Shown: positions 10,648 to 55,560 of the stretch, piece after piece
Layout of the letters: each line of letters starts with the position of its first letter
Position numbering within the stretch: position 1 is the stretch's first letter
Source: Eledone cirrhosa
Taxonomy: Eukaryota
Length of the DNA stretch: 64,000 bases
NCBI GenBank assembly: GCA_964016885.1
Contig: OZ024762.1
Location: 6,386,001-6,450,000, forward strand
Reading direction: 5' to 3'
The notes under the pieces: model-generated
Told to the model about the DNA's origin: nothing
Databases searched by the model: none
The model's input: the letters and a program-made list of their open reading frames with translations, nothing else
Position numbers and translations under genes: made by a program

Positions 10648-10649
10648 AA

Positions 10650-11736
10650 TAGGCTGACCAGGATACTCTCATGGAATGACCAAATGAGGTTTATTTTTCA
10701 ACATGCAAGATTTCACAGCTCTAGCATCACTCCTTCATAGGCTGACCAAGATACTCTCATGGAATGACCAAATGAGGTTTATTTTTCAACATGCAAGATT
10801 TCACAGCTCTAGCATCACTCCTTCATAGGCTGACCAAGATACTCTCATGGAATGACCAAATGAGGTTTATTTTTCAACATGCAAGATTTCACAGCTCTAG
10901 CATCACTCCTTCATAGGCTGACCAAGATACTCTCATGGAATGACCAAATGAGGTTTATTTTTCAACATGCAAGATTTCACAGCTCTAGCATCACTCCTTC
11001 ATAGGCTGACCAAGGTACTCTCATGGAATGACCAAATGAGGTTTATTTTTCAACATGCAAGATTTCACAGCTCTACCACCACTCCTTCATAGGCTGACCA
11101 AGATACTCTCATGGAATGACCAAATGAGGTTTATTTTTCAACATGCAAGATTTCACAGCTCTAGCATCACTCCTTCATAGGCTGACCAAGATACTCTCAT
11201 GGAATGACCAAATGAGGTTTATTTTTCAACATGCAAGATTTCACAGCTCTAGCATCACTCCTTCATAGGCTGACCAAGATACTCTCATGGAATGACCAAA
11301 TGAGGTTTATTTTTCAACATGCAAGATTTCACAGCTCTAGCATCACTCCTTCATAGGCTGACCAAGGTACTCTCATGGAATGACCAAATGAGGTTTATTT
11401 TTCAACATGCAAGATTTCACAGCTCTAGCATCACTCCTTCATAGGCTGACCAAGGTACTCTCATGGAATGACCAAATGAGGTTTATTTTTCAACATGCAA
11501 GATTGCACAGCCCTAGCATCACTTCTTCATAAGCTGACCAAGATACTCTCATGGAATGATCAAATGAGGTTTATTTTTCAACATGCAAGATTGCACAGCC
11601 CTAGCATCACTTCTTCATAAGCTGACCAAGATACTCTCATGGAATGATCAAATGAGGTTTATTTTTCAACATGCAACATTGCACAGTCCTAGCATCACTC
11701 CTTCATAGTGAGCCTATGAACTTTTAAGCCTACCTT
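10650..11736 (-). repeat. Tandem array of 12 x 88 bp derived from the mariner MITE interior
   Basis: Unit starts at 10650, 10738, ... 11618. The unit is the reverse complement of ~9738-9825, and the array ends in the MITE terminus (11706-11736). Confidence 0.92.
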
Positions 11737-11778: not shown

Positions 11779-13365
11779 TTCGAAATAATTTTTGCACCCA
11801 TTTTTGCGATTAAGTAAAGACGGAGTTATCGTTCTTGAGATTTCGGCTCTGGGAAATTTAAGGAACTGATGTCGCTAAATCGCCAAATCATTTACCTGCC
11901 CCGTTGCATCATGGGAGGGTAATGGCTGCCTTTTATTTTTTAAACGATGGCAGATTCTTTAGTTTCTTTCGCAGCATCTTGTTCCTTGTTTCATATAAGT
12001 AAATAATTAAAACATTTTGGCGAGAAAGATATTAGAAAGACTAACATCATGGGAGAGGTTAGGGTTGATTTTTATTTAAAATAAAAAGGCGAGTTTTTTA
12101 ATTTACTCCTTGCCACCGTGTTTGTTGTTTGATATTAGTAAATAGATAAAAGAATTAATTCCATCCCACACCTCCCTGTAATCTGAATATCTAATTACCA
12201 TGGTGTCGGGAGTGGTTAATCTAAACAAAGGGCAATATGTAATCGCTACACCGGCCTCATAATAATTACTATTGTTCTCCTATTTTTCTTCAAAGTGATT
12301 TCGCTTCTTTATTTCATAGAATCATGGCTAATTAATTTAAAGCCACTCACTGACGATCTCCGGCCTCTCACCCTCAGATGTTCTGTCTTCTACAACCCCT
12401 TTTAAAACAATGAAAGGTGTATTCAACGATGTAGATGTGCGTACCTTGATAATCATATAAACACAGGATGGTCACGGCAGGTATACCATCGATTACACAC
12501 ATGTCGGGTCATCTTGTCTTGCTCGTTCAAGACATGTGAATAAAAGTAAACAACAGCAACATGTCTCTACGTCTACGCTCCACTTGCTAGAAATAGAAGC
12601 CAGGTTTCCTAAGAATAACGGAGGTGAATTAGCTGTGACACATGTAAATACAATCTTTTATATTTTATCTGTGAAGGAAGATATTAACAATGTTTTTACT
12701 TTTGATTATGTATATGTAAATATATGTCTTGATCACTCAGGTCTGACTTGTCAATGAAAGTAAACAACAGCTACCTTATGGAATTTTCACCATTTAAACC
12801 CCAACAAAATGCATACAGACATATATAAGTGTATATATATATATATACTCGAAATTATATATATATATATACACGCGAAATTTTTACACGGGGAACAAAC
12901 AGTTCCCATAACCTGAATAGGTCCTCTGAGAACCGACTTATGTATATAGAATCAATGAGATTCCAGCGTTGACCAATATGTGTATATATGACTATCTAAA
13001 ACTACATCTTCTAATGTGTCCTTCATTATTTTAAAACGTGGCGAGCGATAAATATTTGGCTGCTATTTCCAGCAATAATTCTAATGTCACTTTTGTGTGA
13101 ATATCTAGGAAGTAGTATATTCTCTTCTAAATCTTTCTTATTTGTTGGGGCTTGTTTAAGACGTCAGCCCCCGTCGGGCTTGACCCAGCAGAAGTACGAA
13201 GGTTGGCGGACTATGAAGGACTGATGCTAGAGCTGGGAAATCTTGCATGAATTAATTTCAAGCCTTCTTATTAATAACTGCATTGTTTCTTTCCAAGTAA
13301 ACTGACATCTGACTGTTGAAAGAGGACTTCAAATGTAATTAGTAATGACCTCTTGAAAATGGACA
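11779..13365 (+). repeat. Outer left arm of large inverted duplication
   Basis: Reverse complement of 27543-28976, near-identical by eye apart from a ~135-bp insert. Confidence 0.92.
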
Positions 13366-13485
13366 AAATTTGACATCGTGGTATTATCAAGTACCTGAAG
13401 AAAAGGGGTTTATCCCCCAAGGACATTCATGTTGACAAGGTTGCTACATTAAGGGATGACACTCCAGCTTTATCAACAATTCAAC
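13195..13485 (+). mobile_element. Mariner element 5' end: TIR plus transposase HTH pseudogene
   Basis: TA-CGAAGGTTGG terminus; MDKI*HRGIIKYLKKRGLSPKDIHVDKVATLRDDTPALSTI from 13359. Confidence 0.8.
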
Positions 13486-14299
13486 AGGCTCTGGTCCACA
13501 ATTATTGTCTCTCCTCCTTCTGCACATTATACCTCTACTACAATGGTCTCTGCTCCTCCCCAGCCCCTAAATATGCTGTTCCCTCTCTACCTCTACTACA
13601 ATGGTCTCTGCTCCTCCCCAACCTTTAAATATGCTGTTCCTTCTCTTCCTAGTCTACCTTTACTACACTGGTTCCTGCTCCTCATTAGCAATCCCCAGTG
13701 CCTAAATATGCTGTCCCCTCTTTACCTCTACTATAGTGGTCTCTGCTTCTCCCCAGCCCCTAAATATGCCATTCCCTCTCTACTACTATAGTCCCTGCTC
13801 CTCAGAGGTTGCTGGTCACCACTGAAACACTCATCAGTTATGTTGAAAGCCTCTGGTCTATATAGTCACTACATTGAAGACATCCTACTCTGTTTTCTTC
13901 ACAACCACCATAACTTAATTCCTCTGCTGCTGTAGCTGAAACAATGGTTAAATTTTTCACTCACCATGGATACCTTTCCATCCTGTTCTAAGTTACCCTT
14001 ACCAGTGTCCGTGGAGTCCATTGCTCTACCAATCTTCCTCCTTCACACGACAATCACCTTCTGTTATTTTTCCCCTTTCAAAAAACCTACAACCATAAGA
14101 AACTCCTTGTCCACAGTTCCTGAAAAAGTTTTGGGATAAAAGAACTGGTGTAAACCTCCTTTGAGATGTAACCTTGTAGGAGGTCAGTGTATATATATAT
14201 ATATATATATGTAAGTGTAAAGAGAGCTGGATGATGATCAACGAGATTACAGGAAGGAAGAGAGGGAGTTTGAGTTAGATCTGGGGATAAGAAGAGGCT

Positions 14300-14630
14300 G
14301 GACTATTTTAAGATCCTACTAGGAGCCCAGAATACCAGGGAGATCAGACAGCTGTTTGAGGAACTGGATATTGAGACAGGACCTTCGCCAGAGAGGGGCT
14401 TCAGAGAACGAAGAAGATCAAGACCCATGGAGAGGCATACAAAGTGATGAAGAGGTGTGATTTTGATGATATCATCCTGGAGTTCTGTAACCAGGCACTG
14501 GAGAAAGTTGCCCTTGATCACTAACATCATCTCAGTACCAAAGAAGGGAGATCTCTCTAACATGAACAACTACAGGGGAATCTCATTGATGTCACTTGTG
14601 GCAAAGACCCTCAACAGAATCCAGCCCGAG
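14300..14630 (+). mobile_element. LINE RT N-terminal fragment (RTE-like)
   Basis: NIISVPKKGDLSNMNNYRGISLMSLVAKTLNRI. Confidence 0.8.
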
Positions 14631-16320
14631 ATGTATATATATATATATGTGTGTGTATATATATATATTATAAGAATTATCTGTACTATGGCCATATATT
14701 GTTTCCTTTATTTAAGTGTTGTGTTTGCACTACCTTAATCCATAAACTTTGGTGTATGCAGTATTAAGCACTCTATGTATCCAACAGTGGTATTGGATTG
14801 CTTATAACACATTGAAGTATCAGTGTATATATATAGTTTGTTTTTTTGTCCCTTTCATTTCATAAAACCAAATACCTAGTTAGCTACAACTACACTGTAC
14901 TAAACACACTATATATATATACTATTTATGATGATGTCCAAGGATGATTCAAGTTGGCATTAGTTACATTCTAGAAATATCCCATATTGCTCAATGCACA
15001 CTCTGAAGGTTTCCTTTTGTCTTCCTCACATGAAACTGAACTATCAGTCATTCTTTTTCACCGATGAATCAAGAACATCATAAAGTTGGACATGAGTTGG
15101 CAGTGAATTTTGGTTGCTCCACCAAGTCCTATGATAATGAACCTAACCACAATATCTCGCAGTTCTAGCATCACTCCTTCAAAGCCAGCCTATGAGCTTT
15201 TCAGTAGAGAAGAATGTTTATATAAATGTAGCTTTGTGTGTCTGACTAGAGAAGATTTAGTTGTGTTTATTTGACAAGGTAAGTATTTATATATAACTGT
15301 ATCTATGTGTAAGTCTAGAGTAGGTTTAATTTCTTAGAAGAGGTATATATAAATGTAGCTTTATATGTTATGTGTGTAGAGAGAAAAGATGTTTTGTTTA
15401 TTAGACAAAGTAAGTATGTATATATGAATGTAACAGAATGCCTTCAGTTCTCTGAATTAAAATCCTGCTGAGGTCAACTTTGCCTTTCATCCATTTGAGG
15501 TTGCTAAAACAAAGTACCAGTCTAGTATTGAGGTTGATTCTTCTGTTTCTCTGGAAGAAATCTGCTGTATTCAGACCTGGAGAGGAGATGGGTCTGCCAG
15601 GTTTTAAAAAGTGCCCTAGAAATACTGTATGTCAATGTGTGGCCTGTATGACTCCCTTAGGAGTTGCAGGTCCGTGCATACATGTAACTCTCACAGTTTG
15701 GAAGTTCTGCATTCATCACATTGCTCCAGTACTCACAGCCGAGGAGTTAGTCATGTGGTAGACCAGCGTACTATCCAGGGAGAGTCTTGTACTCTCAGAC
15801 ACTTAACACCAAGCAAACTGGTCATAAGCTGAGAACAGTCTTTATATATTATACAAAATGTTGGTCTAATCACATATCGATGAAGGAAATCATGGTCTTA
15901 AGATGCTTATTTACCAAAATAGATAATTAGTGATTGATACTAGTTACTAAGATCGATGGTTTGCATTTTTTATTTTCTGTATTAACATAAACATTACTAT
16001 CATGAAGTCAATATACTTATCGTTCTGTATATATATGTATTAAATACTAGTAGTTTAAACTTGTTACATATAGAAACGGGATGAAAGTAAGGTAACACGG
16101 TCGGGAAAAAGTAATTTCTTTCTGAAAATATTTCGGAGACGAAGTATAATATTGATAATCATTCGGTAGAGATCTCAACTCTCACCATACGAAATATATT
16201 CAGAAAGAGATATTTCTCCACGCCCTCAGTTATCTCGTCTTCATTCCGTTTCTATATATATATTTTTTTAATAAATAAAATTCTAACTATAAGTATGACT
16301 AATTTACTTAGTAGAGTTGT

Positions 16321-16467
16321 GCTCTGTGCATGGCGCTGCACGTAACGTTTTGGGCTTCGCTGTCGTACTTCGGTATGGCATGACCATTCTATGTGTCTGA
16401 AGGTCGAATCGTTGCGGCGGCAGCCCGGCTTTATGCTGGCCTGCGTCCCCGCCTCGCATTGAGTTTT
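16321..16467 (+). ncRNA. Candidate Pol III structured ncRNA, diverged copy 1 (~147 nt)
   Basis: TATAAGTA at 16288 with the same spacing, same UUCG hairpin, GGTCGAATC B-box variant, TTTT end. Most substitutions keep pairing. Confidence 0.55.
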
Positions 16468-17383
16468 ACTAAAAAATTCGCCGAGAGTTATCGTTTGAAT
16501 TACTTGCCCCTGATTGGAACTATTCTCGTTTGTTGTCATTCTTCTTTATTGAATTAAACTGTTAACATCGTTTGGATTTACTCGTGTAATTTGATAGAAT
16601 CAGTCTGGATATTATACTAATGGGGAGAGGTATGTAATGTTTTATTTGCCGTATATACACTCACAGACATACATTATTCTATATGCATTTCATCCTTATG
16701 GGGTCGATAAAATAAAGTACCAGTAATGCACTGGGTAATTGCTGGCCTTGTGCCAAAAGTAGAAACAATTATTCTATATACATAAAGATTCTAGAGACGT
16801 ACATATTGTTTTATTTAAACCTAAATACACACACCAAACTAGATTTATATATATATAAATGTTCTTTAGCTGAGGTAAAATACCCTCTAATTTACCTATA
16901 CGAACGCTTCATTTGCCATGTATATTTTAATTCATTGCTAAACACTCGAAAATACAGTCTTAGATATATATTAACATTCTTTAGTGTATGCATTCACCTC
17001 TATAATCCATACACTGGAAGAAACGTTTCCTATCTAGATCAATATACACATATAAAGCTACATTTATATATACACCTTCATTCTTCTAAAGAGGTATGTA
17101 ATGTTTTAGTTGTCCCTTAAATTCATCGATAAACACGTAGTTATTCCTGAGACACAAGAATATATTTCACTACCCTTCATATACAGGAGGAATGTTAGAG
17201 ACATATATGTATAATATAACCGTCTTTTTACTAAGAATAATAACTAAAATCCCTTCATACTCAGGAAAACTAAACATTCTATCTACATACACCGCCTTCT
17301 GTCTTATTCATAGTGGTACATTGTTAGAAGTAACTAACTAAGCCTTCTCTCGACACTATCATTGCATATTTTAAAATCCACTT

Positions 17384-18818
17384 CTTTATATACTATATTT
17401 AGGTTTAATCAATACATATATTGATGATTGGAATCATGGTCTTAAGATTACCCAAATCGATACTAACTATTACAAATACAGATCTCTCTAAGGCTATGTT
17501 ACCTACATATTAATTGTTTTGAAAAGATGCATCAGTCTTCTCCTCTATGGAGCAGAAACGTGGCCCCTCACAAAGACGATTGACAGCAAAGCCCTGAGGA
17601 CGATCTAAAACATCAGATGGGACCACCTCAGCCTTACTCTCGTTCAACGCAGTAGCACCTGGTCGGCTCTACCCATGATGATGCCGGTCTAGTCTAACAA
17701 GAATAGATGTACAAAATACTCGAATATAAGGTCACCCTCCTCCCTATCTTATGTCTGAGAAGTGTGCAAAAATGCGAACCTTATTTACGTAGAATTTGAA
17801 GTTGGCGAAAATGGTCAAACTATTGACTCCCTATATAAGTCAACCCCTTACTACATATTCCCTGGCTTCTATTCGTGTATATCCCGTTATATATGTACAA
17901 AACACTAGCAGTTCCTTAATGGCTCTATATCCCGTTATATTTATATATAGAGAGAAACGGAAAGAAAGCGAGATAACACTCGGAATATGTCGTGTTATCT
18001 CGCTTTCTTTCCGTTTCTTTTTTTTTTAAAAAAGAAGGAAAATGTTAGCTATAAGTATGACTATTTGACTCGGTAGAATTGCGGCTTGTGCGTGGCGCTG
18101 CACGTAGCGTTTCTGGCTTCGATGTCGTACTTCGGTATGGCATGACCACTCGATCGTGTCTGAAGTTCGAATCGTTGCGGGGTCGGCCGGGACCACAGCA
18201 GGCTGGCTTTATGCTGGCCTGCTCTCCCGCCTCGCATGAGTTTTTGCCAAACAATTTGACGAGAGTTATCTCCCCTTAATTTGAATTATTTGCCCTTTGT
18301 TTACATTGAGCTACTTCCGGTTTGTGGAACTCTTCTTCCTTTGTTGTCATTTCTTCTCAGTGTATTGAAGCTGTAACATCATTCTATTTACTCTGGGACT
18401 ATTAACGATATCTGTTTGGATCTTACGTTCGTGAAAAGAGGTTTGTAAAGTTTTATTCACACTCACGAATATTATTGAGACACAAAAATACATTTCACTA
18501 TCTTGGAAATATACATACATTTAATTCTTCAATATAAATACATTCTTGTAGTGTTTTAGTTGCCATGTCTTTTAAATTTATTCTAAACCTCCTTCCGAGA
18601 AACAAAACAAATATATCTAACTAAACATACATGTTACTTTCCTATATCATGAAGCATCCTCTCATCTTCTGTATACCTTATACTCTAGATACTATACCAT
18701 CGTAATTTCTACGTCGAGTTACATCGGCATCACCACCTTTACTCCAACTCAGCATCCTCTCTTGCACACTTCATATCCCTTTTTAACATCTCTATTACAC
18801 ATACACCTTCTCTGTATA
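17384..18818 (+). repeat. Inner left arm of large inverted duplication
   Basis: Reverse complement of 24096-25526; identical ORF translations occur on opposite strands. Confidence 0.92.
18083..18245 (+). ncRNA. Candidate Pol III structured ncRNA, copy 2 (~163 nt)
   Basis: TATAAGTA at 18050, A-box-like TGGCGCTGCACG at 18093, B box GTTCGAATC at 18165, 15-position 5'/3' terminal stem, cUUCGg hairpin at 18122-18143, TTTTT at 18241. Confidence 0.6.
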
Positions 18819-20304
18819 TTAGTGAGACACAAAAATACATACATTCTTGTAATGTTTTAGTTGCCATGTCTTCTAATTTTATTCTAAACACTCACATATA
18901 GCTACATTTATATATACAAACACTCTTCCTATTTAAACGTATATATTTTGAGAATCATAACTAAAACGCCTCCGGAGAAACAAAACTAAATATATACACG
19001 CAGCTACCTCTTCTAACTAAACATACATATTACTCTCCTTTATTATGAAACAAAACTAAACATGATCTGTATATATACACACACACACAGCTTCCTCTTC
19101 TAACATGTTACAACTATATTCATATATAAACGGTCTCCCTTTTATCTTAACAGATATTTATGAGGCGCAATATACAATCTTGTTCATACTGGAATAATAC
19201 GAAACTAAACCTCCTCTAGACATATTAATATAGAAGCTAAACCATACAGTTATATCTAACGAAGCATGGTAGCTCCATTACTCTGCCGTAAGACTCACTA
19301 CTACTACTTCTAGCATCCTCACCTCCTTGATAGCTACATCATCCACATATAAACGTTCTTCACTAGATACAAAACTAAATCTTTATATATACACAACTAA
19401 CCTATTCTATATTCCTAAGGAACAGCACCAGACCTGGAGACTACTACAACCCTATCTCAAGAAGAAAGGTAAATAAATTGTGAAATAAAAGAATAAACCA
19501 GTATTTTCCTTTGTTGCCTTATTATTTACTCCCTGTATATACACACACTAGACACCTCTTACACTGTAGGAAGACAAAAACCTTCTGTCACTGTATACTA
19601 GATTCATATTATATAAATAAATCCCCTCTATACAGGAGAAATGTTATTGCCTAGATACACACCTATTAGAAACAAGCCATCTCTATATACAGGTAAATAA
19701 CATAAAAGTAGACACGTCTGTATATAAGAAAACATCTAAACCCACATTGTGTGTGTCTCTTTATGAACATCATACACATATAAGATAAGAGGTTTTGATC
19801 TGTACATACATATCAATACATTCTCGCTAGATACTACACATACGTCTCTTAGGAAACTACTACTATTGTTCTTCTAGTTGTTTATAAGGATCTCACAGTA
19901 GAACGTGTACATGCTTCCTAAGAAGCAAGAGAGCTAACTGTATAAATACAAAGAAATTTAGTGTTCTTTACATTCAATGACACACAAAGCTTACTTCATG
20001 TCTATAATATACCTTCTTCTCTATATTGGAAGAAGTACCTCATTATATATTGAAGTTGTGTTCAATAGAGTACAGTATGTAGAACCATATGTACACAGTT
20101 ACCCTTTTCTTGAAAGGATACATCAATACTCTGTTCTCCTCTAGACAGGCATACTCACCATATAAACACTTTTGTGTATATAAAGCATATCTTCATTGTA
20201 AATTTAGAAGTTACACTACACAGATATAAAGACAACAACCTACAGACATATTAATACCCTTATATCTCTAGACTACTGTATTATATAAATATAGCTCAGG
20301 AGTT

Positions 20305-22530
20305 AGACATATATACATACGTATGTATATACATACATATGCATAAATATGTATACATATACATATACATGTATATATACACATACGTATGCATGAATAT
20401 ACATACATATGTGTATATATACATACGTATGTATACATATACATGCGTATGTATATATACATACGTATATTTACGCATACGTATGTGTATATACACATAC
20501 GTATATATACATGCGTATGTATATATACATACGTATGCGTATATACACATACGTATGTATACATACACATACGTATGTGTACATACACATACGTATGCGT
20601 AAATATACATACGTATGTATATATATACATATGCATGCATATATATACATACGTATGTGTATATACACATACGTATGTATATATACGTATACATACATAT
20701 GTATATATACATGCGTAAATATACATACGTATGTAAATACACATACGCATGTATATGTATTGGTATATACACATACGTACGTGTATATACACATACGTAT
20801 GTATATATATACATACGTATGTATATATATACATACGTATGTGTTTATACACATACGTATGTGTATATACACATACGTATGTGTATATATACACATACGT
20901 ATGTGTATATATGCATGCGTATGTATATATACATACGTATGTGTATATACACATACGTATGTATATATATATACATACGTATGTGTATATACACATACGT
21001 ATGTATATATACATACGCATGCATATATATATACATACGTATATTTACGCATACGTATGTATATATACACATACGTATGTGTATATATATATACATACGT
21101 ATGCGTATATACACATACGTATGTATATTTACGCATACGTATGTATATATACGCATACGTATGTGTATATACACATACGTATGTGTATATACACATACGT
21201 ATGTGTATATATACATACGTATGTGTATAAACACATACGTATGTATACATATACATGCGTATGTGTATTTATGCATACGTATGTATATATACATACGTAT
21301 GCATATGTATACATACGCATGTATATTTACGCATACGTATGTATATATACACATACGTATGTATATATATACGCATACGTATGTGTATATATACACATAT
21401 GTATGTGTATATACACATACGTATGTGTATATATACATACGTATGTGTTTATACACATACGTATGTGTACATATACATGCGTATGTGTATTTATGCATAC
21501 GTATGCATATGTATACATACGCATGTATATATACATACGTATGTGTATATACACATACGTATGTGTATATACACATACGTATGTATATATACACATACGT
21601 ATGTATATATACATACGTATGTATATTTACGCATACGTATGTATATATACACATACGTATGTGTATATATACACATACGTATGTGTATATACACATACGT
21701 ATGTGTATATACACATACGTATGTGTATATATACACATACGTATGTGTATATACACATACGTATGTGTATATATGCATGCGTATGTATATATACATACGT
21801 ATGTGTATATACACATACGTATGTATATATATATACATACGTATGTGTATATACACATACGTATGTATATATACATACGCATGCATATATATATACATAC
21901 GTATATTTACGCATACGTATGTATATATACACATACGTATGTGTATATACACATACGTATGTGTATATACACATACGTATGTGTATTTATGCATACGTAT
22001 GTATATATACATACGTATGCATAAATACACATGCATACATACGTATGCATATATATACATACGTATGTATATATACATACGCATGTATATGTATATATAC
22101 ATATGCATGTATATGTATATATACATACGTATGTATATATATATATACGTATGTGTATATACACATACGTATGTATATATACATACGCATGCATATATAT
22201 ATACATACGTATGTGTATATACACATACGTATGTGTATATACACATACGTATGTATATATATATACATACGTATGTGTATATTTATGCATAAATATACAT
22301 ACGTATGTATATACATACATATGTATATATATACATATGTATGTATATACATACATATGTATGTATATACATACATATGTATGTATATACATACATATGT
22401 ATGTAGATACATACTTAAGTATATATATACATATGTATATATGTACACATACATATGTATATATATACACACATATGTATGTATATATATACACATATGT
22501 GTGTATATATATATGTATGTTTATATAAAT
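20305..22530. repeat. 2.2 kb self-complementary satellite built on the palindrome ACATACGTATGT with TA/CA spacers
   Basis: Dozens of CATACGTATG units at a ~20-26 bp period. Confidence 0.95.
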
Positions 22531-24095
22531 ATAGGTAAGGAGTTGAACTTTTTTCTCTAGATAATATAAGTATGTGTATTCTATAGGATACTATTACCTT
22601 AAAACTGTGTGTATATATATATACACTTACTTCTATAGAATCCATACATATTAACACCCTTCTATCTCTAGGCATATGTATACATACAGAAAGAAATGGC
22701 CTCACTAGAATACTGCATTAGATACATTTCTTTCATGAAAGATGTTTCGAACTGAGTTCATACTTCTATTCCTATATACATACTGGGAGAGATATAGAAT
22801 ACAAATTTATTCTATATACAGAAGGAAATAAACTTACTAGAATACTGTATATATACACATTATAAATGTTTATAATAAGAAACTTCTTTATTAATACCTC
22901 TATTCCTATATACTTACTGGTAAGTATGAGAGAGGTATATATAGATATTATAACCTCTTACAGGAGATATACACAGCAAGAAATAAACTTGCTAGGATTA
23001 CTGTATTATATATATATACAGTTTCCATTCTCAAAGAAACTTTTCTATAGCACCACACTTACCTCTTTCAGTAAGAAGGATGTTTCTTACTGGGATTCTA
23101 TAGTGTACATACACATTAATTAATCTATTCTATATATACACTTCTTTCAAGAAGGATGTTTCTCACTAATTACATAAATATATACAGTATCTAAATACAT
23201 ATATTATGAGTGGAAGTTAAACGATCTACATGTAAGATACTACCTGTGTATATATATAATAAAATACAATGTTCTATAGGATATACTTACTTCTAAGTGA
23301 AATAAAGATTAATAAATAAACTACATTTTGTTGTTGGAGTTATTTTATTTCTTGAGACGACTGTGTGTATTTACACACTCAGGTGAGCTGGCGGAGATCT
23401 TCAACATACCTGGAAAGAAACAGAATATATTAATAAAAATAATCCAGATTACACAGCTCTAACACCAATAATTGTCTGGATGCAGAAATCAAACCTCTTT
23501 ATCCTGAACAGTTTAGTTTCTTATACGCCTCTAGATGAGGTATTACTGTATTTATAATATAATATATGGTTTTTTTATTATTGAGAAGGATAATAAATAT
23601 ATAAGCCTTCTAGATGTTACAGAGAAGTCTCTACATACAAACAGTAGATTCTTTGCTGTGTACACACAATATCTAGTAGTAAGTTTCTGTGTATTATATA
23701 CACACGTGTGTACAATGTTTGTATAACAAGGGAGTGTATTCTATGGAATACCATATCTATAGGAAACTATGTATGTGTAATATAATACATGGGGAGTTTT
23801 TTTTCTATTGAGAAGGATACTGAATATAATGTCTTCTAGATGTTAGGGGAATCTCTACGTACAAAAAATAGATGCCTTGATTAAAATATCCAGAGTTTTA
23901 TGTAAGTATCCTCGGGAAAAGTAGTAGAGAAGAGGGTTTTAACTTTGCCTTGTGTGTATATAGATGCTGCATATATACAATACTTCGAAGTGTGTTTATG
24001 TATAGAGAGAGGGTCTGTATTCTATATACTACAGTTTCTTATATAGCTCCGGATACTGTGTATAATGAGGAGATATACCTTTCTTCTAAGTAAGT

Positions 24096-26095
24096 ATATA
24101 CAGAGAAGGTGTAATAGAGATACGATTATAATATAAATATATAGTTGATATGATGTGTGCAAGAGAGAATGCTGAGTTGGAGTAAAGGTGGTGATGCCGA
24201 GGTAACTCGACGTAGAAATTACGATGGTATAAGGTATAGAGAGGAAAGTAACATGTATGTTTAGTTAGAAGAGGTAGCTGCGTGTATATATTATTTGTTT
24301 TGTTTCTCGGAAGGAGGTTTAGTTCTGTGAAGAGTGTTTAGAATACATTTAAAAGACATGGCAACTAAAACACTACAAGAATGTATTTATATTGAAGAAT
24401 TAAATGTATGTATATTTCCAAGATAGTGAAATGTATTTTTGTGTCTCAATAATATCCGTGAGTGTGAATAAAACTTTACATACCTCTTTACACGAACGTA
24501 AAATCCAAACCGGTATCGTTAATAGTCCCAGAGTAAATAGAATGATGTTACAGCTTCAATACACTGAAAAGAAATGACAACAAAGGAAGAAGAGTTCCAC
24601 AAACCGGAAGTAGTACAATGTCAACAAAGGGCAAATAATTCAAATTAAGGGGAGATAACTCTCGTCAAATTGTTTGGCAAAAACTCATGCGAGGCGGGAG
24701 AGCAGGCCAGCATAAAGCCAGCCTGCTGTGGTCCCGGCCGACCCCGCAACGATTCGAACTTCAGACACGATCGAGTGGTCATGCCATACCGAAGTACGAC
24801 ATCGAAGCCAGAAACGCTACGTGCAGCGCCACGCACAAGCCGCAATTCTACCGAGTCAAATAGTCATACTTATAGCTAACATTTTCCTTCTTTTTTAAAA
24901 AAAAAAACGGAAAGAAAGCGAGATAACACGACATATTCCGAGTGTTATCTCGCTTTCTTTCCGTTTCTCTCTATATATAAATATAACGGGATATAGAGCC
25001 ATTAAGGAACTACTAGTATTTGGTACATATATAACGGGATATACACGAATAGAAGCCAGGGAATATGTAGTAAGGGGTTGACTTATATAGGGAGTCAATA
25101 GTTTTGTAGCAAGGACCATTTTCGCCAACTTCAAATTCTACGTAAATAAAGTTCGCATTTTTGCCCACTTCTTAGACATAAGATAGGGAGGAGGGTCACC
25201 TTATATTCGAGTATTTTGTACATCTAGACCGGCATCATCATGGGTAGAGCCGACCAGGTGCTACTGTGTTTAACGAGCGTAAGGCTGTGGGCTGATGTTT
25301 TAGATCGTCCTCAGGGCTCTGCTGTCAATCGTCTTTGTGAGGGGCCACGTTTCTGCTCCATAGAGGAGAAGACTGATGCATCTTTTCAGAACAATTAATA
25401 TGTAGGTAACATAGCCTTAGACAGATCTGTATTTGTAATAGTTAGTATCGATTTGGGTAATCTTAAGACCATGATTCCAATCATCAACATATGTATTGAT
25501 TAAACCTAAATATAGTATATATAAAGTCTGTTCTCAGCTTCTCACCAGTTTCTTTGGAATTAAGTGTCTGAGAGTATAAGACTCTCCCTGGATAGGACAC
25601 TGGTCTATCGCAGGATTAACTCCTCAGCTGAGTGTACTGATGAAACGTTTTTAAAGACTTACATACAGAACTTCCAAGCTGTGAGAGTTATATGTATGGA
25701 CCCGTAACTCCCGAGGGAGTCATAGATGCAACGCATTGACATAGTGTTTCTAGGGCTCTTTTTAAAACCTGGCAGAGCCCAGGTCTGAATACAGCGGATT
25801 TCTTCTAGAGAAGTGTAGAGGAAGAATTCACCCCAGTACTAGACTGGTACTTTTTTTTATCAACCTTGAATGGATGAAAGGCAAAGTTGGCCTTGATGGG
25901 ATTTGAATTCAGACAGCTGAAATGAAGGCATTCTATCTGTTACATTTATATATACATACTTTCTTTGTCTAATAAACAAAACTAAATCTTCTCTAGACAC
26001 ACACATAAAGTTACACTTATATAAACCTTCTTCTGTACAAACAAGGGTCAACTGAAAAGCTCATAGGCTGACTATGAAGGAGTGATGCTAGAACA
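24096..26095 (-). repeat. Inner right arm (24096-25526 pairs with 17384-18818; 25515-26095 pairs more loosely with 15160-15850)
   Basis: Direct inspection of reverse complements. Confidence 0.88.
24679..24841 (-). ncRNA. Candidate Pol III structured ncRNA, copy 3 (inverted duplicate of copy 2)
   Basis: Reverse complement matches 18083-18245; the ORF track gives identical translations over both. TATA at 24874 on the minus strand. Confidence 0.6.
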
Positions 26096-26429
26096 GTGAA
26101 ATCTTGCATGCATTAATTTCAACTCTCCTTACTAATAACTGCATTGTTTCTTTCCATTTGGTCAGTCAGCCCTCTTAACGTATATACTTCTGATTCTCTT
26201 TTTTACTAAGAAACAGAATTAAACCTTCTCTACACAGGAAAATATTACTGACATCTTCAAAGGAATGTAAATAAACTTCCTTATCTAGCGACGAACATGT
26301 GAAATAAACCAAACTTTTGCTTTTTCATTTCTTCTAAGAAACGAGACAGCTAATGCCAATAAGTGTGTATACAAAAAAAATGTCTACACACTTCAGGAAA
26401 AGAAATATTTGTATAAATATATATATTTA

Positions 26430-26800
26430 GCACCCATCCACCATCTGAGTGAATCTCTTGGTCAGTGTCCAAGTCTCAGACCCGTACAGCAATACAGATG
26501 AATCTTCAGGTCTTTACGAAGGTCCAACCTCAAACTGTGACACGTCACCCAGTCTTTGCTCCAATGTTGGATGGGTGCTACACGAGAATGCTGAGGATGG
26601 CTCTGAACATTAATCAGTAAGAACTGAGGATGAAGAGCTCTGAGCTGTACAGGAGCCTCTCGAAAGTAACACAGAGGAAATTGAGGTTAGCTGGACATGC
26701 TCACTGATATTCAGAGTTGATACTGCACTCAGTGGTCCTGTGGGAGCCCCTCCACGGACACACTAGAAGAGGGAATTTTACCCACCCTAGATAGATATAT
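26430..26800 (+). mobile_element. RTE-like LINE 3' fragment with short 5' inversion and (TAGA)n tail
   Basis: LDGCYTRMLRMALNI and RKLRLAGH on plus, LLYGSETWTLT on minus. The tail resembles 31300-31330. Confidence 0.65.
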
Positions 26801-27017
26801 ACATACAAAAGATGAATTTCCACGTTGAGATATCTTGATTCAAGAAATGTATTATTGAATATATGTATCTTTTCCTGAAGTGTGTATACATTTTATTGGC
26901 GGATTCTATATATACAAACAAAAGAGTAACATTTCAGCAAATGGCCTTGTAGTGAAAGGACTGGAGATCAGGAACTTCGAGACTGGTTGCATCCATAGGG
27001 TCCTTTCACCCTCTAAG

Positions 27018-27150
27018 CATTCCCGGGTATTTCCGGCTATTCCCCGGAATTTTCGGTCATTTCCGGGTATTTCCGACTGTTTTCGGTTATTACCGGGTAT
27101 TTCCGGCTATCTCCGGCTATTTCCGACTAGTTGCGTCTATTTTCCGTCGA
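27018..27150. repeat. 10-bp period ATTTCCGGSW array
   Basis: About 12 degenerate units; three more at 27513-27543. Confidence 0.85.
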
Positions 27151-27542: not shown

Positions 27543-28976
27543 TGTCCATTTTCAAGAGGTCATTACTAATTACATTTGAAGTCCTCTTTCAACAGTCAGA
27601 TGTCAGTTTACTTGGAAAGAAACAATGCAGTTATTAATAAGAAGGCTTGAAATTAATTCATGCAAGATTTCCCAGCACTAGCATCAGTCCTTCATAGTCA
27701 GCCAACCTTCGTACTTCTGCTGGGTCAAGCCCGACGGGGGCTGACGTCTTAAACAAGCCCCAACAAATAAGAAAGATTTAGAAGAGAATATACTAATTAC
27801 TAGATATTCACACAAAAGTGACATTAGAATTATTGCTGGAAATAGCAGCCAAATATTTATCGCTCGCCACGTTTTAAAATAATGAAGGGCACATTAGAAG
27901 ATGTAGTTTTAGATAGTCATATATACACATATTGGTCAACGCTGGAATCTCATTGATTCTATATACATAAGTCGGTTCTCAGAGGACCTATTCAGGTCAT
28001 GGGAACTGTTTGTCCCCCGTGTAAAAATTTGGCGTATATATATATATAATTTCGAGTATATACTTATATATGTCTGTATGCATTTTGTTGGGGTTTAAAT
28101 GGTGAAAATTTCATAAGGTAGCTGTTGTTTACTTTCATTGACAAGTCAGACCTGAGCTATCAAGACATATATTTACATATACATAATCAAAAGTAAAAAC
28201 ATTGTTAATATCTTCCTACACAGATAAAATATAAAAGATTGTATTTACATGTGTCACAGCTAATTCACCTCCGTAATTCTTAGGAAACCTGGCTTCTATT
28301 TCTAGCAAGTGGAGCGTAGACGTAGAGACATGTTGCTGTTGTTTACTTTTATTCACAGGTCTTGAACGAGCAAGACAAGATGACTCGACATGTGTGTAAT
28401 CGATGGTATACCTGCCGTGACCATCCTGTGTTTATATGATTATCAAGGTACGCACATCTACATCGTTGAATACACCTTTCATTGTTTTAAAAGGGGTTGT
28501 AGAAGACAGAACATCTGAGGGTGAGAGGCCGGAGATCGTCAGTGAGTGGCTTTAAATTAATTAGCCATGATTCTATGAAATAAAGAAGCGAAATCACTTT
28601 GAAGAAAAATAGGAGAACAATAGTAATTATTATGAGGCCGGTGTAGCGATTACATATTGCCCTTTGTTTAGATTAACCACTCCCGACACCATGGTAATTA
28701 GATATTCCGACTACAGGGAGGTGTGGGATGGAATTAATTCTTTTATTTATTTACTTATATCAAACAACAAACACGGTGGCAAGGAGTAAATTAAAAAACT
28801 CGCCCTTTTTTTAAAAATAAAATTCAACCCTAACCTCTCCCATGATGCAACGGGGGCAGGTAAATGATTTGGCGATTTAGCGACATCAGTTCCTTAAATT
28901 TCACCAGAAGGAAATCTCAAGAACGATAACTCTGTCTTTACTTAATCGCAAAAATGGGTGCAAAAATTATTTCGAA
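27543..28976 (-). repeat. Outer right arm of large inverted duplication
   Basis: Pairs with 11779-13365. Confidence 0.92.
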
Positions 28977-29352: not shown

Positions 29353-29465
29353 TATAAGTATGATTAATTTACTCAGTAGTATTGCAGCTTTGCGTGGCGC
29401 TGCACATAACATTTTAAGCTTAGTCGTCTACTTAAGTAGTGTACAGTCACTGAAGGTTCCACAAA
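29353..29465 (+). pseudogene. Degenerate 5' fragment of the same ncRNA cassette (copy 4)
   Basis: TATAAGTATGATTAATTTACTCAGTAG...TGCGTGGCGCTGCAC is retained; the 3' half is absent. Confidence 0.5.
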
Positions 29466-33393: not shown

Positions 33394-33728
33394 TTAATCT
33401 CCATCAATGTAAAATTTATTTCTACTCGACCTAAAAACTTGAGAATTAACAAAAGAAGGGTTCCCTTTATGCCGATTATTAATTGTAGTATCACATAGTT
33501 TATCTTGTTCTTGTTGATACAAAAAATTAATGCCAGAAGTAGCATTATTGTTACTTTCTTGGCAATGGTTGTTTGTCACTGGTTCTTCCATAGCAGCAAC
33601 AATAGAAGATGAAGAAGAATTAGTGTTGAGTATTTCTGTTAAATTGTCTTCAATAGGTCTGGAAGTAGAGATGTTAGAGGAATCCATCCTAAATGTGGCC
33701 GATGGTGATGGTAGCAAAGACCCTTCAG

Positions 33729-33759
<31 letters not shown>

Positions 33760-34599
33760 GATGATAACTGGTTCGACTTTAACAGCAGACTCTAAAGGTC
33801 GTTTCGGTTGATTTGATTCGGAGAAAATATTAGTTGTATTCTTGTTGAAGCGATGTGACAAAGCCCGAAGTGGTTCAGAATCAGTTCCTGCTTGGGGTGG
33901 CTTAATTGAAGGGAGATAACTATAGGGTTCTAAATTAACTTCTCTAGCTGCAGATTTGGAGCAATGATTTCTCAAGTTCTGCTCTTCACAGACACCAGTT
34001 GATGGTGAGTCAATGAAATCATTGTTACCTGCCTGAAAATTTACGTAGACCTCTCTTACTTTAGGTGTGTGTGTCAGTACACAGTCCTTGTTAGTATTAC
34101 TCTCTTCAGTCATGAAGTGTGTTGACGGGGCTTTATCTGTGATGTCTTCAGTTTTAATTTTAAAATTGGTTTGTGATTTCATAACTGATGGATTCTGACT
34201 GGAGGTAGACACTGAGAACGAGCTTGAAGTTGAAAAATTAACTTGGTTTTCTGTCAACAACTGTTTCTTGGGAGGATGAAATGTAACAGTTATTGTATCA
34301 GCTGCTGGATCCAAGGGGTTCTTATTTTCACAAGGTTGAACCTTAGGGGATGACACACCCCTTTCTGTATCGCACAGTTGTTTCAAGTCAGCAATCTCTA
34401 AACACAATGCTATTGTCTCTAATTGAGTCAGTAGGTCAGGGTCCAAGTTTAAGTGGCCCTTGTAAATGTATTCAGCAAAGGCATGGAGAGCTTCGCTGCT
34501 TACACTGTTGGGTAGATTGACCACAAGAAACTGGTTGTAGCGTGTGTCGTTGGTTGAAAGTAGCTTCGGACAGAGGGCTATCAAGACAATCTTATGAAC
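33394..34599 (-). CDS. Exon 7: BTB remainder (VHKIVLIALCP...EYIYKG...LEIADLKQLC) and S/T/D-rich tail to stop
   Basis: Acceptor ttccag|GTT, 401 open codons, BTB HKxVLxA and YIYxG motifs, VKVE/IKTE SUMO-type motifs. Confidence 0.9.
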
Positions 34600-37500
34600 C
34601 TGGAATAAACAAAAGAGAATAATGACATACAGAAAAATAGCACTACTAGGCACTGCACACGTTACAAAGAGTACCCCAGGACTTGCATATACAACATACA
34701 GAAAAATAGCACTACTAGGCACTGCACACATGTTACAAAGAGTACCCCAGGACTTGCATATACAACATACAGAAAAATAGCACTACTAGGCACTGCATAC
34801 ATGTTACAAAGAGTACCCCAGGACTTGCATATACAACATACAGAAAAATAGCACTACTAGGCACTGCACACATGTTACAAAGAGTACCCCAGGACTTGCA
34901 TATACAACATACAGAAAAATAGCACTACTAGGCACTGCACACATGTTACAAAGAGTACCCCAGGACTTGCATATACAACATACAGAAAAATAGCACTCCT
35001 AGGTAGTGCTTACATATTATGAAGTGTATTCCCAATACAATAGAACTATTAACACTCTACATATCCAAGACACACAGAACAATAAAAATAAGACAATAAT
35101 AATTGTTTCTACTTTAGGCACAAGGCCAACAATTACTCCAGTGCATTACTGGTACTTTATTTTATTGACCTCGTAAGGATGAAAGGCAAAGTTAACCTCA
35201 GCGGTTACACACACATACACATATATACATCATCCCCATCATTTAACATCCATTTTCCCTGCTAGCTATATATATATATATATAATTATATAAATCAACA
35301 AAGAAGAATACATTAAAAATCTTTATCCGCTGACAATGTTTTCATTGGTTCAAGGATGCATTGAAGGAGAACTTGAAGAATTTAGGAATTGATTCCAGAG
35401 ACATGGAAAGTCTCATTGTGAATCGCTCTACTTGGCATTCAAAAATATGGGATGGTATGAAAACCTTTAAGCAAAACAAGCTAATGCAAGTAAATATTAA
35501 GAATATAAGAAAAAAAAACAGCCACCCAAGGGAACATGAAATTAATAGAACTTTCTCTACTTGTAAAGTTTGTGGCAAAATCTGCCTTGGAAATGTAACC
35601 TTATTACATAAAGATGCTGTCTGATGATGTAGTGTCACCAGTTGAATGATTGAATCATCACATAGCTCCGATTGCCATTGAAATATGTATCACAGTTTAA
35701 TAGCTCTGATTGCCATTGAAATATGTATCACAGTTTAATAGCTCTGATTGTCATTGAAATATGTATCACAGCTTTATAGCTCTGATTGCCATTGAAATAT
35801 GTATCACAGCTTTATAGCTCTGATTGCCATTGAAATATGTATCACAGCTTTATAAATAAAGGATTTTTAAACATCTACTCTGAACTTCGCAATTGTTTGT
35901 CACAGACAGACAAATTATATTTGAAAGAAAATACATGATGTTGAGTGCTTAAATCTAATTGCATCATTATTCACTGATTGGTGTGTTGTATATGCAACCC
36001 CAAGTAGACATGTTTACCTAAGTATCATCAGGCTAGCATGAGTTAGATGAGTTGTCCTATTGTGAGACAAGCCAGATCAGGTGACTATGTCGTGACTTTA
36101 CAAGGCTGATTTTGGTTTGATGCCCATCCTAACAGTAAATTTAGTAGCGAAATCAAGCTTGTATGAAACCACATTTGGGATATATATATAAAACTATATA
36201 TATATAAAACTATATACATATAAAACTATATAAAATGCTTACCATTACTATGGAACTTCCATTTCCAATTGCAGCATCACACAGCCTTCCTTTCTTCCAA
36301 AGCTGTGCTAAACTGTCCATCATGTGATACTGATGTTCAGCTACAATATGTACTTTCTTAGACTGGCCTGCTGCTGTGTACTCCACCAATGGAGAAACTT
36401 CTTCGTCTTCTTCATGTTGTGAATATTGAGGTTCAGGCTCTATATATGCCAGTTTTTGTTGAGGGTAGTCATCTTCATGTTCTAAATACTGTACTTCCTC
36501 TTGTGGACAGTGATAGTCTTGTTGTGAATAATGCAGTGTTTGTTGTGAACACTGAGTTTCTTGTTGTGAACTCTGAACATCTTGTGAATACTGAAGATCT
36601 TGTGAACTTTGAAGATCTTGTTGTGAATACTGAACTTGTTCTTGTGAATATTGAGCTTGTTGTGAATACTGAACTTGTTGTTGTTGTTGCTGTGAGCCTG
36701 GAGGATCTTCTTCATCATCTAATAACGGAACTGAATTCTCAGGAATTGTCCTGTAAATAAAACGTAAATTCATCTTAATAGTTTCTGAAAAAAGATATAC
36801 TCTTCCTCTTCCTTCTCCTAATCATCATCATCATTGGTGGTGAATTGGCAGTATCGGTAGAGGGTCGGACGCCATGCTTTGACGCATAGAGTTACGGCCC
36901 TTGCCATTCTGAGTTCAAATCCCACCGAGGTTAACTTTGCCTTTCATCCTTACGGGGCTCGATAAAATAAAGTACCAGTAATGCACTGGGGTAATTGCTG
37001 GCCTTGTGCCAAAAGTAGAAACAATTATTATTATTAACATGGCTTAATGGTTAGAGCATTGGCCTTGCAATCGAAAGGTTGTGAGTTCAATTCTCAGGCA
37101 GGATGATGTGTTGTTTCCTTGAGCAAGACACTTTATTTCACATTGCTCCAGTTTACTCAGCTGTAGAAATGAGATGATAGAGACTGGGGTCCATATCATT
37201 CCACTGTAAAGTGGTCGTGGAGGTGCCATGGCAAAAAAGCACCCAGCACTCACTGTAAATGAGGTTGGTGTTAGGAAGGGCATCCAGCTGTAGAAGTCAA
37301 GCCAGAATCAGTTCCTGTCCGACCCTTGCAAGCAGGGAAAAGCGGACGTAAAATGATGAAAAGAAGGTGAAGGTGAAGCCACGCTTCATATTGGCTCCAG
37401 GTTTTTTCAACTGTTTACATTTATTTTGACTGTCTCTAACCCTTTATTCAAGTTTTAAACTTGATAAGAATTTAGAGCAAGTGACCCACCTAACACAGGT

Positions 37501-38688
37501 GGGTCACTTGTAATAATACGACACCTCTTGGTGGGGTGTTGTCTTTGAAAAAATTTTACAATCAACATATCTTTTAAAGAACGTTACCACTACAGAGAGT
37601 GAGAGTGTGAGAGAGAGAGTGAGAGTGTGAGAGAGAGAGTGTGAGAGAGAAAGTGAGAGAGAGAGCTGTAAGATAACATAGAGAGAGGGAGATGTCATTG
37701 TCAACAGTTCAACAAGACAGCGTTCTAGTGAAGGCAACTACTACAGAAGAAAAAAAAACAATATTGTTTTAAATGATATTGTTTTACAATTAAAACAGTC
37801 AAGTGGTTCTGACAGGAACAGCAACAACAACAACACCATCAATAACAACAGCATCAACGATAAGATTGAGAAAGATAATAACAACAACAGCCACAACAAC
37901 AAAGAAACACAATCCACAATGAACAATAGCACCCAGAAAATTTCTTTCGCTGGTGCTATCAAGTCATCCTTCAGAAAACTAAACTTTTCTGAGGATGAAA
38001 TAGGAAAAGCAAGGAGTCTTGTTGAAAACAATGGCCATATTGTCAGTCTCAAGACTCCTTTGGAACCGATCCAACATACGGTACGTCGAACTGTGACATA
38101 CCATATTATTGGATTAAAAAGCAAAAAGATTGACAGAGCTACAGAACCTTAGATTCAAAAGGCTCTGGGGCCAGTCTGGGCCCCAAAAATTTACATTCAA
38201 ATGAGCAGGGGTTTTGGCACAGTAAAGGTTAGATTTAACATCAAAGAAGAGGAAAAATCTAACTCTCTCAAGCCCCTACAAAATGATGAAATTATGCTCA
38301 TCCCATTCTACTGTGAAATGAGATCAGTAAGAATTAAAATTAAACAAATACCACTGGAAATAGACATTTCTTGGAGGACAATGTGGTACAAATACTTTGT
38401 TGTGTTTAGCCATATTGCAGTGTTTTGATGGTCTTATTCGTGCCACTCACAAATCTGGTACTTATTTCATCCCTGAGAAATATAGAAGTATTTAGTTACC
38501 AAATTTGAATCGGTTTCAGGATTCCATCTTGATTGAAGAAGTCAGAGTTCAGTTGGGATTCTTTGACATGGCTCAGATTAACACCAGGGAAGGAAGATTC
38601 TTTGCTGCCAATTTTAGAAAATGAAAGCTTGTTCAACTCATCATGGCTTAATATTTGGGCAGGATCAAATTTTGGTCTTTTGTGCTGT

Positions 38689-38726
<38 letters not shown>

Positions 38727-55104: not shown

Positions 55105-55560
55105 TATAATGGTTTCTTATATAGGCACAAGGCCAGTAATTTGGGGGGGGGGGGGAAAGTCGATTAAATCGACCCCAGTGCGTGACTGGTACTTTATTTT
55201 AGCGACCCCGTAAGGATGAAAGGCAAAGTTAACCTCCGCGGGATTTGAACTCAGATCATAAAGGGCCATAACTCTATGCTGCAAAGCATGGTGTCCGGCC
55301 CTCTACCGATACTGCCAATCCAATAATGGTTTCCGATTTAGGCCAACAATTTGAAGGGAAGGGGAAAGTTGATTAAATCAATCCCAGTATTTAACTGGTA
55401 CTTCATTTTATTGCCCCCAGAATGACGAACAGTGAAGTTGACCATGAAAGGATTTGAACTCAGAACATAAAGGAGTGTAACTACCACAAAGCACTTTGAA
55501 CTCGGGCCGTAACTCCATGCTGTAAAGCATGGCGTCCAACCCTCTACCGATACTGCCACC
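55105..55560 (-). mobile_element. Two tandem SINE family A copies
   Basis: The core motif occurs twice. Confidence 0.85.

Follow-up and report, generated by a model that had tools for sequence, protein, structure and literature searches.

A multicopy family of predicted structured Pol III RNA genes in a 64,000-nt stretch of Eledone cirrhosa DNA

Introduction

Lineage-specific structured RNAs that RNA polymerase III (Pol III) makes, such as snaR and 4.5SH/4.5SI, are to our knowledge known mainly from mammals, and several of them were assigned functions only decades after their discovery. Here we describe a multicopy family of putative genes of this kind, represented by three full copies and one relic in a 64,000-nt stretch of DNA from Eledone cirrhosa (contig OZ024762.1, positions 6,386,001 to 6,450,000; hereafter the window) and by further copies in a 3.0 Gb animal assembly, the contigs of which are labelled C1-C26.

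Among the described systems, the snaR family of great apes is structured, multicopy and segmentally duplicated (PMC3045588), and its RNA binds the double-stranded RNA (dsRNA)-binding motifs of NF90 (PMC2094060). In rodents, paired ends stabilise the 4.5SI RNA (PMC3440375), while the adenovirus VA RNA and Epstein-Barr virus (EBV) EBER genes combine A and B boxes with upstream TATA-like help, a promoter type set out in PMC7279448. A search of the literature and of Rfam 15, which left subscription papers (octopus short interspersed nuclear elements (SINEs), vault RNA evolution) and supplements outside its scope, returned no description of the family RNA.

Judged by analogy, the window copies are best read as belonging to a Pol III RNA family that is lineage-specific, turns over by birth and death and would work like primate snaR or the rodent 4.5S RNAs. 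The family likely makes a 160-190-nt Pol III transcript, predicted to fold into long helices and likely an abundant ligand of dsRNA-binding proteins, and it spreads by DNA duplication while old copies decay, a reading to which we assign a probability of roughly 0.55. A selected Pol III RNA encoded by the family, now or in the recent past, appears probable in its own right; the role as a dsRNA-binding-protein ligand, drawn only from shape and from analogy to snaR and VA RNA, is a tentative suggestion. The preliminary description of this DNA had proposed a structured Pol III-type RNA gene outside the catalogued families, and this proposal agrees with the absence of any Rfam or ARAGORN match, the conservation of TATA box and gene core relative to the flanks, and a retrocopy that begins at +1.

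Promoter architecture

The three GC-rich copies lie where they had first been placed (Table 1). With +1 set at G18081 of copy 2, TATAAGTA falls at -31/-24, and the A and B boxes occupy +13/+23 and +85/+93; together with a terminator of at least four T residues, all the parts of a type-2 Pol III gene with a TATA-like box are present. The TATA position matches that of the 4.5SH/4.5SI, 7SL and EBER genes, and 6 of 9 A-box and 8 of 10 B-box positions agree with the type-2 consensus (PMC7279448). G18081, with the TATA box at -31, is a likelier start than the 18083 originally given, since the retrocopy L061, described below, begins at the equivalent base.

A B box had been ascribed to all three copies; GTTCGAATC is indeed present in copies 2 and 3, which are of type A, whereas copy 1 has GGTCGAATC instead, and most copies of its type, type B, have GATCGAATC. 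Across the 109 copies parsed out of 141 tried, a set found in part by that same motif, GTTCGAATC occurs in 50 and GATCGAATC in 49. Divergence among ten old copies found by an upstream motif is 2.5% at the TATA box and 12.8% at the B box, compared with 16-30% elsewhere. The CpG observed/expected ratio is 1.16-1.18 in the genes versus 0.37-0.45 around them.

That the TATA and B boxes are the best-conserved parts would also suit an element acting as DNA, namely TFIIIC-bound boundary or chromatin-organising sites on small chromosomes rich in gene clusters, with the RNA as a by-product; the concentration of copies on C20-C26 and the C2H2 arrays near two of six long loci point the same way. This account is nevertheless very unlikely: it leaves unexplained the pairing-preserving changes and the one-strand fold described below, and no gene family is consistently co-duplicated.

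Predicted structure and selection

Copy 2 folds at -77.9 kcal/mol (z -4.9; none of 200 shuffles as good), compared with z -1.8 for the opposite strand, which bears out the one-strand structure reported earlier; copy 1 has z -3.9. Of the elements first ascribed to copy 2, the terminal stem, the long helix, the cUUCGg hairpin and the GCAGGCUGGC hairpin stand, but the GGUC/GACC hairpin is not in the minimum-free-energy fold. In the family alignment the GGUC/GACC segment supplies the 5' strand to a longer helix on the 3' side, and the 15-nt loss in copy 1 is therefore not the clean removal of a hairpin that it was once taken for. Across the family, z runs from -1.6 to -4.8 in the main A clade and is mostly between 0 and -3 in old copies (30 shuffles each). 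When 37 copies are aligned, 88% of cells are paired in the 19-bp helix, which is capped by two hairpins, 87-94% in the 3' helix and 69% in the terminal stem, the last figure partly reflecting an alignment register shift. RNAalifold recovered only part of the core from these copies (19 pairs; covariation term -0.93).

In a pair-keeping test over 43 pairs, with the terminal stem excluded and four mis-registered rows dropped from one helix, stem variants found in two copies kept pairing in 12 of 21 cases against 8.9 expected, and those found in three or more copies in 17 of 28 against 12.7, each with P ~0.01, values that are optimistic because the copies are related; private variants did so in 6 of 42 cases against 6.1 expected. 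Types A and B, compared in two pairs, agree fully at the TATA box (0% divergence); the core differs by 9.8%, the 3' part by 16% and the adjacent flanks by 33-39%. Over 79 type-A copies, variant alleles per site number 0.25 in the core, 1.29 in the 3' part and 0.89-1.8 in the flanks, and the B box is undamaged in 76 (for the TATA box, see Table 1). Type A (copies 2 and 3) is shown to be a young constrained wave, and type B (copy 1) and the older types to be drifting.

Several observations weigh against a selected and transcribed RNA. Two-sided covariation across the 37 copies is weak, with 11 pairs against 10.0 in shuffled alignments (191 of 500); the covariation score of 0.131 against 0.121 shuffled (4 of 500) is of a level that unconstrained alignments reach 5-25% of the time; and pair-keeping within type A sits at expectation (7 of 11 versus 6.1; 16 of 53 versus 14.3). 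The conservation of the type-A core is inflated because copies were found by gene motifs, and the flank divergence figures include alignment noise. In 32 type-B copies the core is more variable (0.39 alleles per site) than the downstream flank (0.12-0.18), and copy 1's type is therefore drifting. In old copies the core (20% divergence) enjoys no advantage in conservation over the nearby downstream flank (18%), and many of these copies carry internal deletions. Furthermore, the A box departs from the consensus at 3 positions, fitting only 6 of 9; just one clean retrocopy event is known, and it stems from an older subfamily; the transcript is deduced from DNA sequence; and no orthologue comes from a clearly independent species, the pieces in sequencing runs X5 and X6 (one type-A piece each, depth 3-5) being too slight to count as an orthologue from a different species.

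Two earlier arguments lose force. The pair changes between copies 1 and 2 are readable from the alignment, yet they are weak as covariation, both in the 37 copies and with type B varying more than its flanks. Likewise, all three copies exist, but copies 2 and 3, identical over 231 nt, belong to the two arms of an inverted duplication (1.4 kb, 91% identity) and are therefore not independent evidence.

The neutral decay of most old copies, the lack of constraint in type B and the weak covariation fit a selfish or neutral core duplicon, a once-functional or SINE- or tRNA-born Pol III unit that multiplies without benefit, in which palindrome, satellite and Pol III occupancy would promote breakage and inverted duplication and any RNA would be jobless. 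The 27-bp palindrome that travels with the gene and the layout of convergent pairs around a tandem array, which recurs on C8, C12, C13, C21 and C23, are in keeping with it. We consider this account doubtful, as it leaves unexplained the strand-specific G-U helices, the pairing-preserving shared variants and an A-versus-B core divergence about 1/4-1/3 of that of the flanks.

The upstream palindrome is itself perfect in type A, and in older copies its mismatches can be read as G-U pairs on the sense strand; of 38 distinct hairpins, the sense orientation folds better in 15 and the antisense in 4, the copies being related. The palindrome (window 17953-18018 and equivalents) could form a separate RNA hairpin of precursor-microRNA size.

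Traces of transcription

A retrocopy preserves the likely 5' end of the transcript. At L061/L392 (G000:C1:388.80 Mb), the 5' part of a family member without its TATA box is joined to a full SINE in a chimera flanked by target-site duplications (TSDs), in the order TTTAGACTGGT, 2 nt, family sequence exactly from the +1 G to about +130, full-length SINE, 1 nt and TTTAGACTGGT. The TSD is 11 bp long, and the SINE is 82% identical to the one at window 55107-55322. None of 160 control SINE ends had an 11-mer match at both fixed ends; a looser null, with the 3' end ignored and tandem repeats included, gives 9.6%. The layout is that of the small nuclear RNA (snRNA)/retroposon chimeras made during reverse transcription (PMC4476161), or else the chimera may stem from a read-through transcript of a copy with an inserted SINE. 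Either origin implies that the germline once contained an RNA with its start at +1. At L062, family sequence from about +5 to about +76 is joined, without a clear TSD, to the tail of a long interspersed nuclear element (LINE), which we take to be of the RTE type; this may be a second retrocopy. Both loci derive from older subfamilies.

In run X2, one 158-nt contig whose variant letters match L090/L286 has a depth of 53.7, versus 4-12 for its neighbours; L090/L286 (G000:C26:7.03 Mb) is a single-copy degenerate member with single-copy depth in run X1. The X2 depth is not counted as expression because the contig takes in the TATA region, a long T tract closes the locus and the run need not be one of RNA; a copy-number difference or a transcript could lie behind it.

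Family size and genome distribution

Exact matches to the B-box core motif number 154 on about a dozen contigs (control 1), and those to the cUUCGg hairpin motif 74 (C22, C23, C25 and one small contig; control 0). The TATA plus A box motif has 106 matches (69 type A, 30 type B and 1 relic among 100 listed), an A-box motif weighted to type A has 91, and an older loop variant has 30 over 13 contigs; DNA similarity searches gave 247-288 first-look candidates, which are not copy numbers. The copy number is thus at least 154 and probably runs to a few hundred, most copies being on the small contigs C20-C26, with about 90 young intact copies and well over 100 older ones. The term "clustered", first applied to it, understates a family that is genome-wide and not a local group of three genes.

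In a 37-copy tree, rooted at its midpoint for display only, an A/B clade stands apart from older clades, some of which are limited to one or two contigs, and duplication waves are shown each to favour one or a few chromosomes. Two pattern scans of metagenomes yielded no family match; a scan of viral contigs gave five motif matches at chance level (at most 10.7 bits, versus 122-135 bits for real copies), and no viral coding context was found near the copies. On C21 (L078-L080), a truncated family member forms a 1574-bp tandem array.

Mode of spread

Both the TATA/palindrome flank and the downstream flank are kept in 79 of 86 distinct gene-bearing copies, four having the upstream flank only and three the downstream flank only (two of these flags, L061 downstream and L062 upstream, stem from a SINE or microsatellite in the reference flanks); the family therefore spread as DNA and not as a SINE. 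Among loci chosen by a flank motif, the gene is present in 17 of 18 for the upstream and 9 of 15 for the downstream motif. Young copies have kilobases of flank in common, and older ones, 70-85% alike, retain the same palindrome, TATA box and downstream flank. Six 30-kb loci reveal a unit of up to about 15 kb, made by eye of old LINE, SINE and other repeat fragments, that reads B, then A, satellite and inverted A, with variable ends. In general, duplicons carrying gene, promoter and flanks measure 0.5-15 kb and often form convergent pairs around satellite. Judging from these flanks, the family spreads through segmental duplication under a birth-and-death regime rather than through the retroposition typical of SINEs, and it has the snaR/4.5S-like trait of multicopy segmental duplication with subfamily turnover. 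The picture of an ordinary SINE, with thousands of TSD-flanked copies lacking the TATA box, which the preliminary description had named as fatal to its reading, does not fit copies that number in the low hundreds and retain flanks and TATA.

Dispersal with flanks to about 15 contigs could also mean that the gene is carried by a DNA transposon of non-autonomous kind (Helitron/Helentron or foldback) that needs the Pol III gene or its structure to move. Downstream degenerate repeats that grow into satellites, an upstream hairpin followed by CTAG on the reverse strand, and PIF1-helicase fragments beside the cassette in all three C25 loci examined are consistent with such a carrier; those three loci, however, are not independent because one duplicon is common to all, and the fragments are absent from three C22/C23 loci and from the window. 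No terminal inverted or direct repeats lie within 1.5 kb in 63 loci, and the hallmarks of a transposon or of a terminal-repeat retrotransposon in miniature (TRIM), namely fixed termini, terminal inverted repeats (TIRs) or long terminal repeats (LTRs), TSDs or a target site, were not found, ends beyond 10 kb having been covered in six loci only. Homology extends past the CTAG in most copies, and neither a co-duplicated protein gene nor LTR pairs were found. Transposon cargo of this kind is decidedly unlikely.

The C25 fragments (L099, L102, L106; C25 only) comprise a broken Helitron-type PIF1 helicase and Rep-like pieces that flank the cassette in inverted arrangement. At L097:3162-5597(-), an 812-aa open frame sits between 315-bp inverted repeats (99.6%); it has a weak reverse-transcriptase match and, on inspection by eye, a C-terminal part like a GIY-YIG nuclease, and the whole is likely a Penelope-like element of young age.

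Known RNA classes and possible origins

At the gathering threshold Rfam gave no match in the window or in three older copies, and in E-value mode none on copy 1 and two chance-level ones on copy 2, which at 19 and 13 bits fall well short of the cut-off. ARAGORN found no tRNA in the window, and 56 family loci contain no tRNA gene. A family model, R1, gives the window copies 122-135 bits; vault, U6, tRNA and 7SK loci yield no match to it, and 7SL and viral loci score no higher than 10.7 bits.

A divergent vault RNA or a Y/stem-bulge RNA, the vault form having been one of the candidates put forward at first, would share the terminal stem, internal boxes, TATA box and oligo-U, and the Y RNA role is without an identified occupant because Rfam's Y RNA model came up empty in the genome. 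The vault reading is not supported because a separate cluster on C3 has the vault motifs and passes the Rfam Vault cut-off in 14 of 17 matches; the family, by contrast, has no RF00006 match in the window or in old copies and lacks the A-box/UUACUUCG motifs and RF00006 score of vault membership, and model R1 does not match the vault loci. As for Y RNA, there is no RF00019 match, and the bulged-C Ro60 helix is not visible in the terminal stem. Either identity is therefore barely tenable. The C3 cluster (G000:C3:221.18-221.25 Mb; L182-L186, L233) consists of 87-93-nt genes of two alternating types, with 14 matches above the Vault cut-off, at 34-43 bits. The genes have TAGCCGTGTGGTTACTTCG, ends that pair and a run of T, and no canonical B box; by sequence these are candidate protostome vault RNAs.

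Other classes were set aside as well. 7SK on C2 and U6 on C19 are separate type-3 genes, and the octamer-like motif of U6 is not found upstream of the family; kinship with the 7SK 3' hairpin comes to a 13/15 match (E = 1.0) absent from old copies. Alignment scores to 7SL/Alu-like RNA are at shuffle level in 4 of 4 copies, the 7SL array lying separately on C12. A tRNA-derived SINE is countered by the 79 of 86 copies with both flanks and the single TSD-flanked chimera, and no similarity or complementarity to the window SINEs exceeds chance. By eye, CUGAAGA occurs in some copies without the GAAA partner of a hammerhead core, the AUUUG of an Sm site is lost in type A, and a telomerase template is not conserved.

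Initiator tRNA is a marginal candidate for the family's origin, to be taken as a lead only. In a small biased panel, tRNA-iMet ranked first or second for seven of eight copies by small margins, with tRNA-Asn equal at the 5' end; the initiator tRNA of the same genome also has GATCGAA and shares GTGGCG and AGATCGAA with the family's two boxes. It has 110 motif matches in the genome, with tandem arrays on C3 and C4. Among the remaining Pol III and snRNA genes, 7SL has 25 matches, mostly on C12 (an array of over 20 at C12:42.10-42.13 Mb), U6 has 48, with an array of about 30 copies at 1.8-kb spacing on C19 (C19:31.78-31.84 Mb), and there is one 7SK gene at C2:194.68 Mb. A dispersed tRNA-like gene with a GGC anticodon by ARAGORN (L197-L226, many contigs) has near-identical flanks on both sides and, from these, is apparently carried inside another repeat. 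The genome's abundant SINE presumably resembles the octopus tRNA-derived SINEs.

Features of the window

The coordinates are collected in Table 1. The relic had been counted within 16288..24874 and lies beyond that interval; model R1 does not match it. Copy 1 is likely a decaying passenger. The convergent copies 2 and 3 flank a TA-rich 20-bp satellite (~20255-22560).

Table 1. Features of the Pol III-type gene family in the window.
Feature	Position	Strand	Details
Duplicon, ~15 kb, order B->A...<-A	12045..27022	.	recurs on C22, C23, C25 at 84-97%, breakpoints variable
Copy 1 upstream palindrome	16071..16256	+	arms ~16071-16098 and ~16229-16256, interrupted by ~130 bp insert
Copy 1 TATA box TATAAGTA	16288..16295	+	at -31/-24; undamaged in 32/32 type-B copies
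Copy 1, type B gene, 149 nt	16319..16467	+	A box TGGCGCTGCAC 16331-16341, non-consensus B box 16402-16410, T4 16464-16467
Inverted duplication	17387..25521	.	arms 17387-18777 and 24147-25521, 91% identity
Copy 2 upstream palindrome	17953..18018	+	27-bp arms; common to whole family
Copy 2 TATA box TATAAGTA	18050..18057	+	at -31/-24; undamaged in 70/79 type-A copies
Copy 2, type A gene, 165 nt	18081..18245	+	predicted +1 = G18081
Copy 2 boxes		+	A box TGGCGCTGCAC 18093-18103; B box 18165-18173; T5 terminator 18241-18245
Copy 2 fold parts		+	19-bp helix 18103-18121/18161-18179; cUUCGg hairpin 18122-18143; 3' hairpin 18198-18222
Copy 3, type A gene, same sequence as copy 2	24679..24843	-	A box TGGCGCTGCAC 24821-24831, B box 24751-24759
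Copy 3 TATA box and upstream palindrome	24867..24968	-	TATA TATAAGTA 24867-24874, palindrome 24903-24968
Relic copy	29353..29433	+	TATA 29353-29360 and A box 29395-29405 retained; 3' part and B box gone

A second inverted pair, 97% identical (12045-13365 and 27543-28847), encloses the whole cassette; its right-hand piece carries the unit's left end and adjoins the relic. Satellites in or beside the duplicon are an 88-bp, a 20-bp TA-rich and a 10-bp GC-rich repeat (10649-11708, 20255-22560 and 27010-27150). Further along, 33394-39835 (-) holds exons of a gene with BTB and C2H2 zinc-finger domains (Pfam BTB and zf-H2C2 matches).

Proposed explanation

Under the preferred reading of a birth-and-death Pol III RNA family, TFIIIC would bind the two internal boxes (A, +13..+23; B, +85..+93), TFIIIB would take its position from the TATA box (-31/-24), and Pol III would start at the G and stop at T4-5. 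The predicted product is an RNA of 161-165 nt (up to ~190 nt in old forms), its ends paired into a terminal stem, with the 19-bp helix and two small capping hairpins as a conserved core and a second helix as a variable 3' part. Long G-U-rich helices without a guide, template or Sm element suggest a protein ligand.

A bolder version, an abundant, germline-expressed, cephalopod-specific RNA class whose ~90 near-identical active copies, maintained by successive duplication waves, titrate ADAR, Dicer or an NF90-like protein, is unlikely; if true, the host itself would encode a regulator of the VA RNA type, in a lineage noted for its extreme A-to-I editing. More broadly, the family gives a testable target, with one probe, a predicted 5' nucleotide and a predicted size; it documents the turnover of non-coding genes by chromosome-limited duplication waves; and the candidate vault genes on C3 both remove the vault reading and supply a protostome vault cluster.

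Comparison with known systems

The closest counterpart is snaR, being likewise multicopy and marked by an intragenic promoter, core-duplicon spread, inverted clusters and rapid subfamily turnover by internal indels and, as is probable for the family, highly structured and lineage-restricted, in its case to great apes (PMC3045588). The two differ in that snaR is Alu/7SL-derived, whereas the family is similar to the genome's 7SL only at chance level (no sequence link with snaR was sought or expected), and in that the family is longer (160-190 versus ~117 nt), has about 5-10x more copies and possesses a TATA box. Expression and NF90 binding have been demonstrated for snaR, whereas the family is known here from its DNA. 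The rodent 4.5SH and 4.5SI RNAs have the same type-2 promoter with a -31/-24 TATA-like box (TTCAAGTA in 4.5SH, TATAAGTA in the family; PMC7279448) and, in 4.5SI, paired ends as predicted for the family, which would also share their narrow taxonomic range; they derive from 7SL or tRNA, whereas the family has only the marginal initiator-tRNA candidate, a longer A-B spacing (B box at +85) and a multibranched fold.

Vault RNA (RF00006) shares the terminal stem, internal A box, oligo-U end and clustered copies, but its model goes unmatched and its GGUUACUUCG motif is absent from the family, and the vault-scoring genes of the genome are the 87-93-nt ones on C3. Adenovirus VA RNA and EBV EBER are alike in length (~160 nt), A and B boxes, terminal stem and long apical helix; they are viral, whereas no family copy has viral coding context near it. 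The tRNA-derived SINEs and TRIMp3 elements (Helenus/Ajax; PMC10886601) are also dispersed with an internal Pol III promoter, and at least one family copy was retroposed; unlike them, family copies keep the upstream TATA box and sequence past the terminator, number in the low hundreds and are without TSDs, tails or LTR pairs. Set beside these systems, this would be a new family of a known kind, the lineage-restricted type-2/TATA Pol III RNAs, and one that is unusual in copy number, size and phylum.

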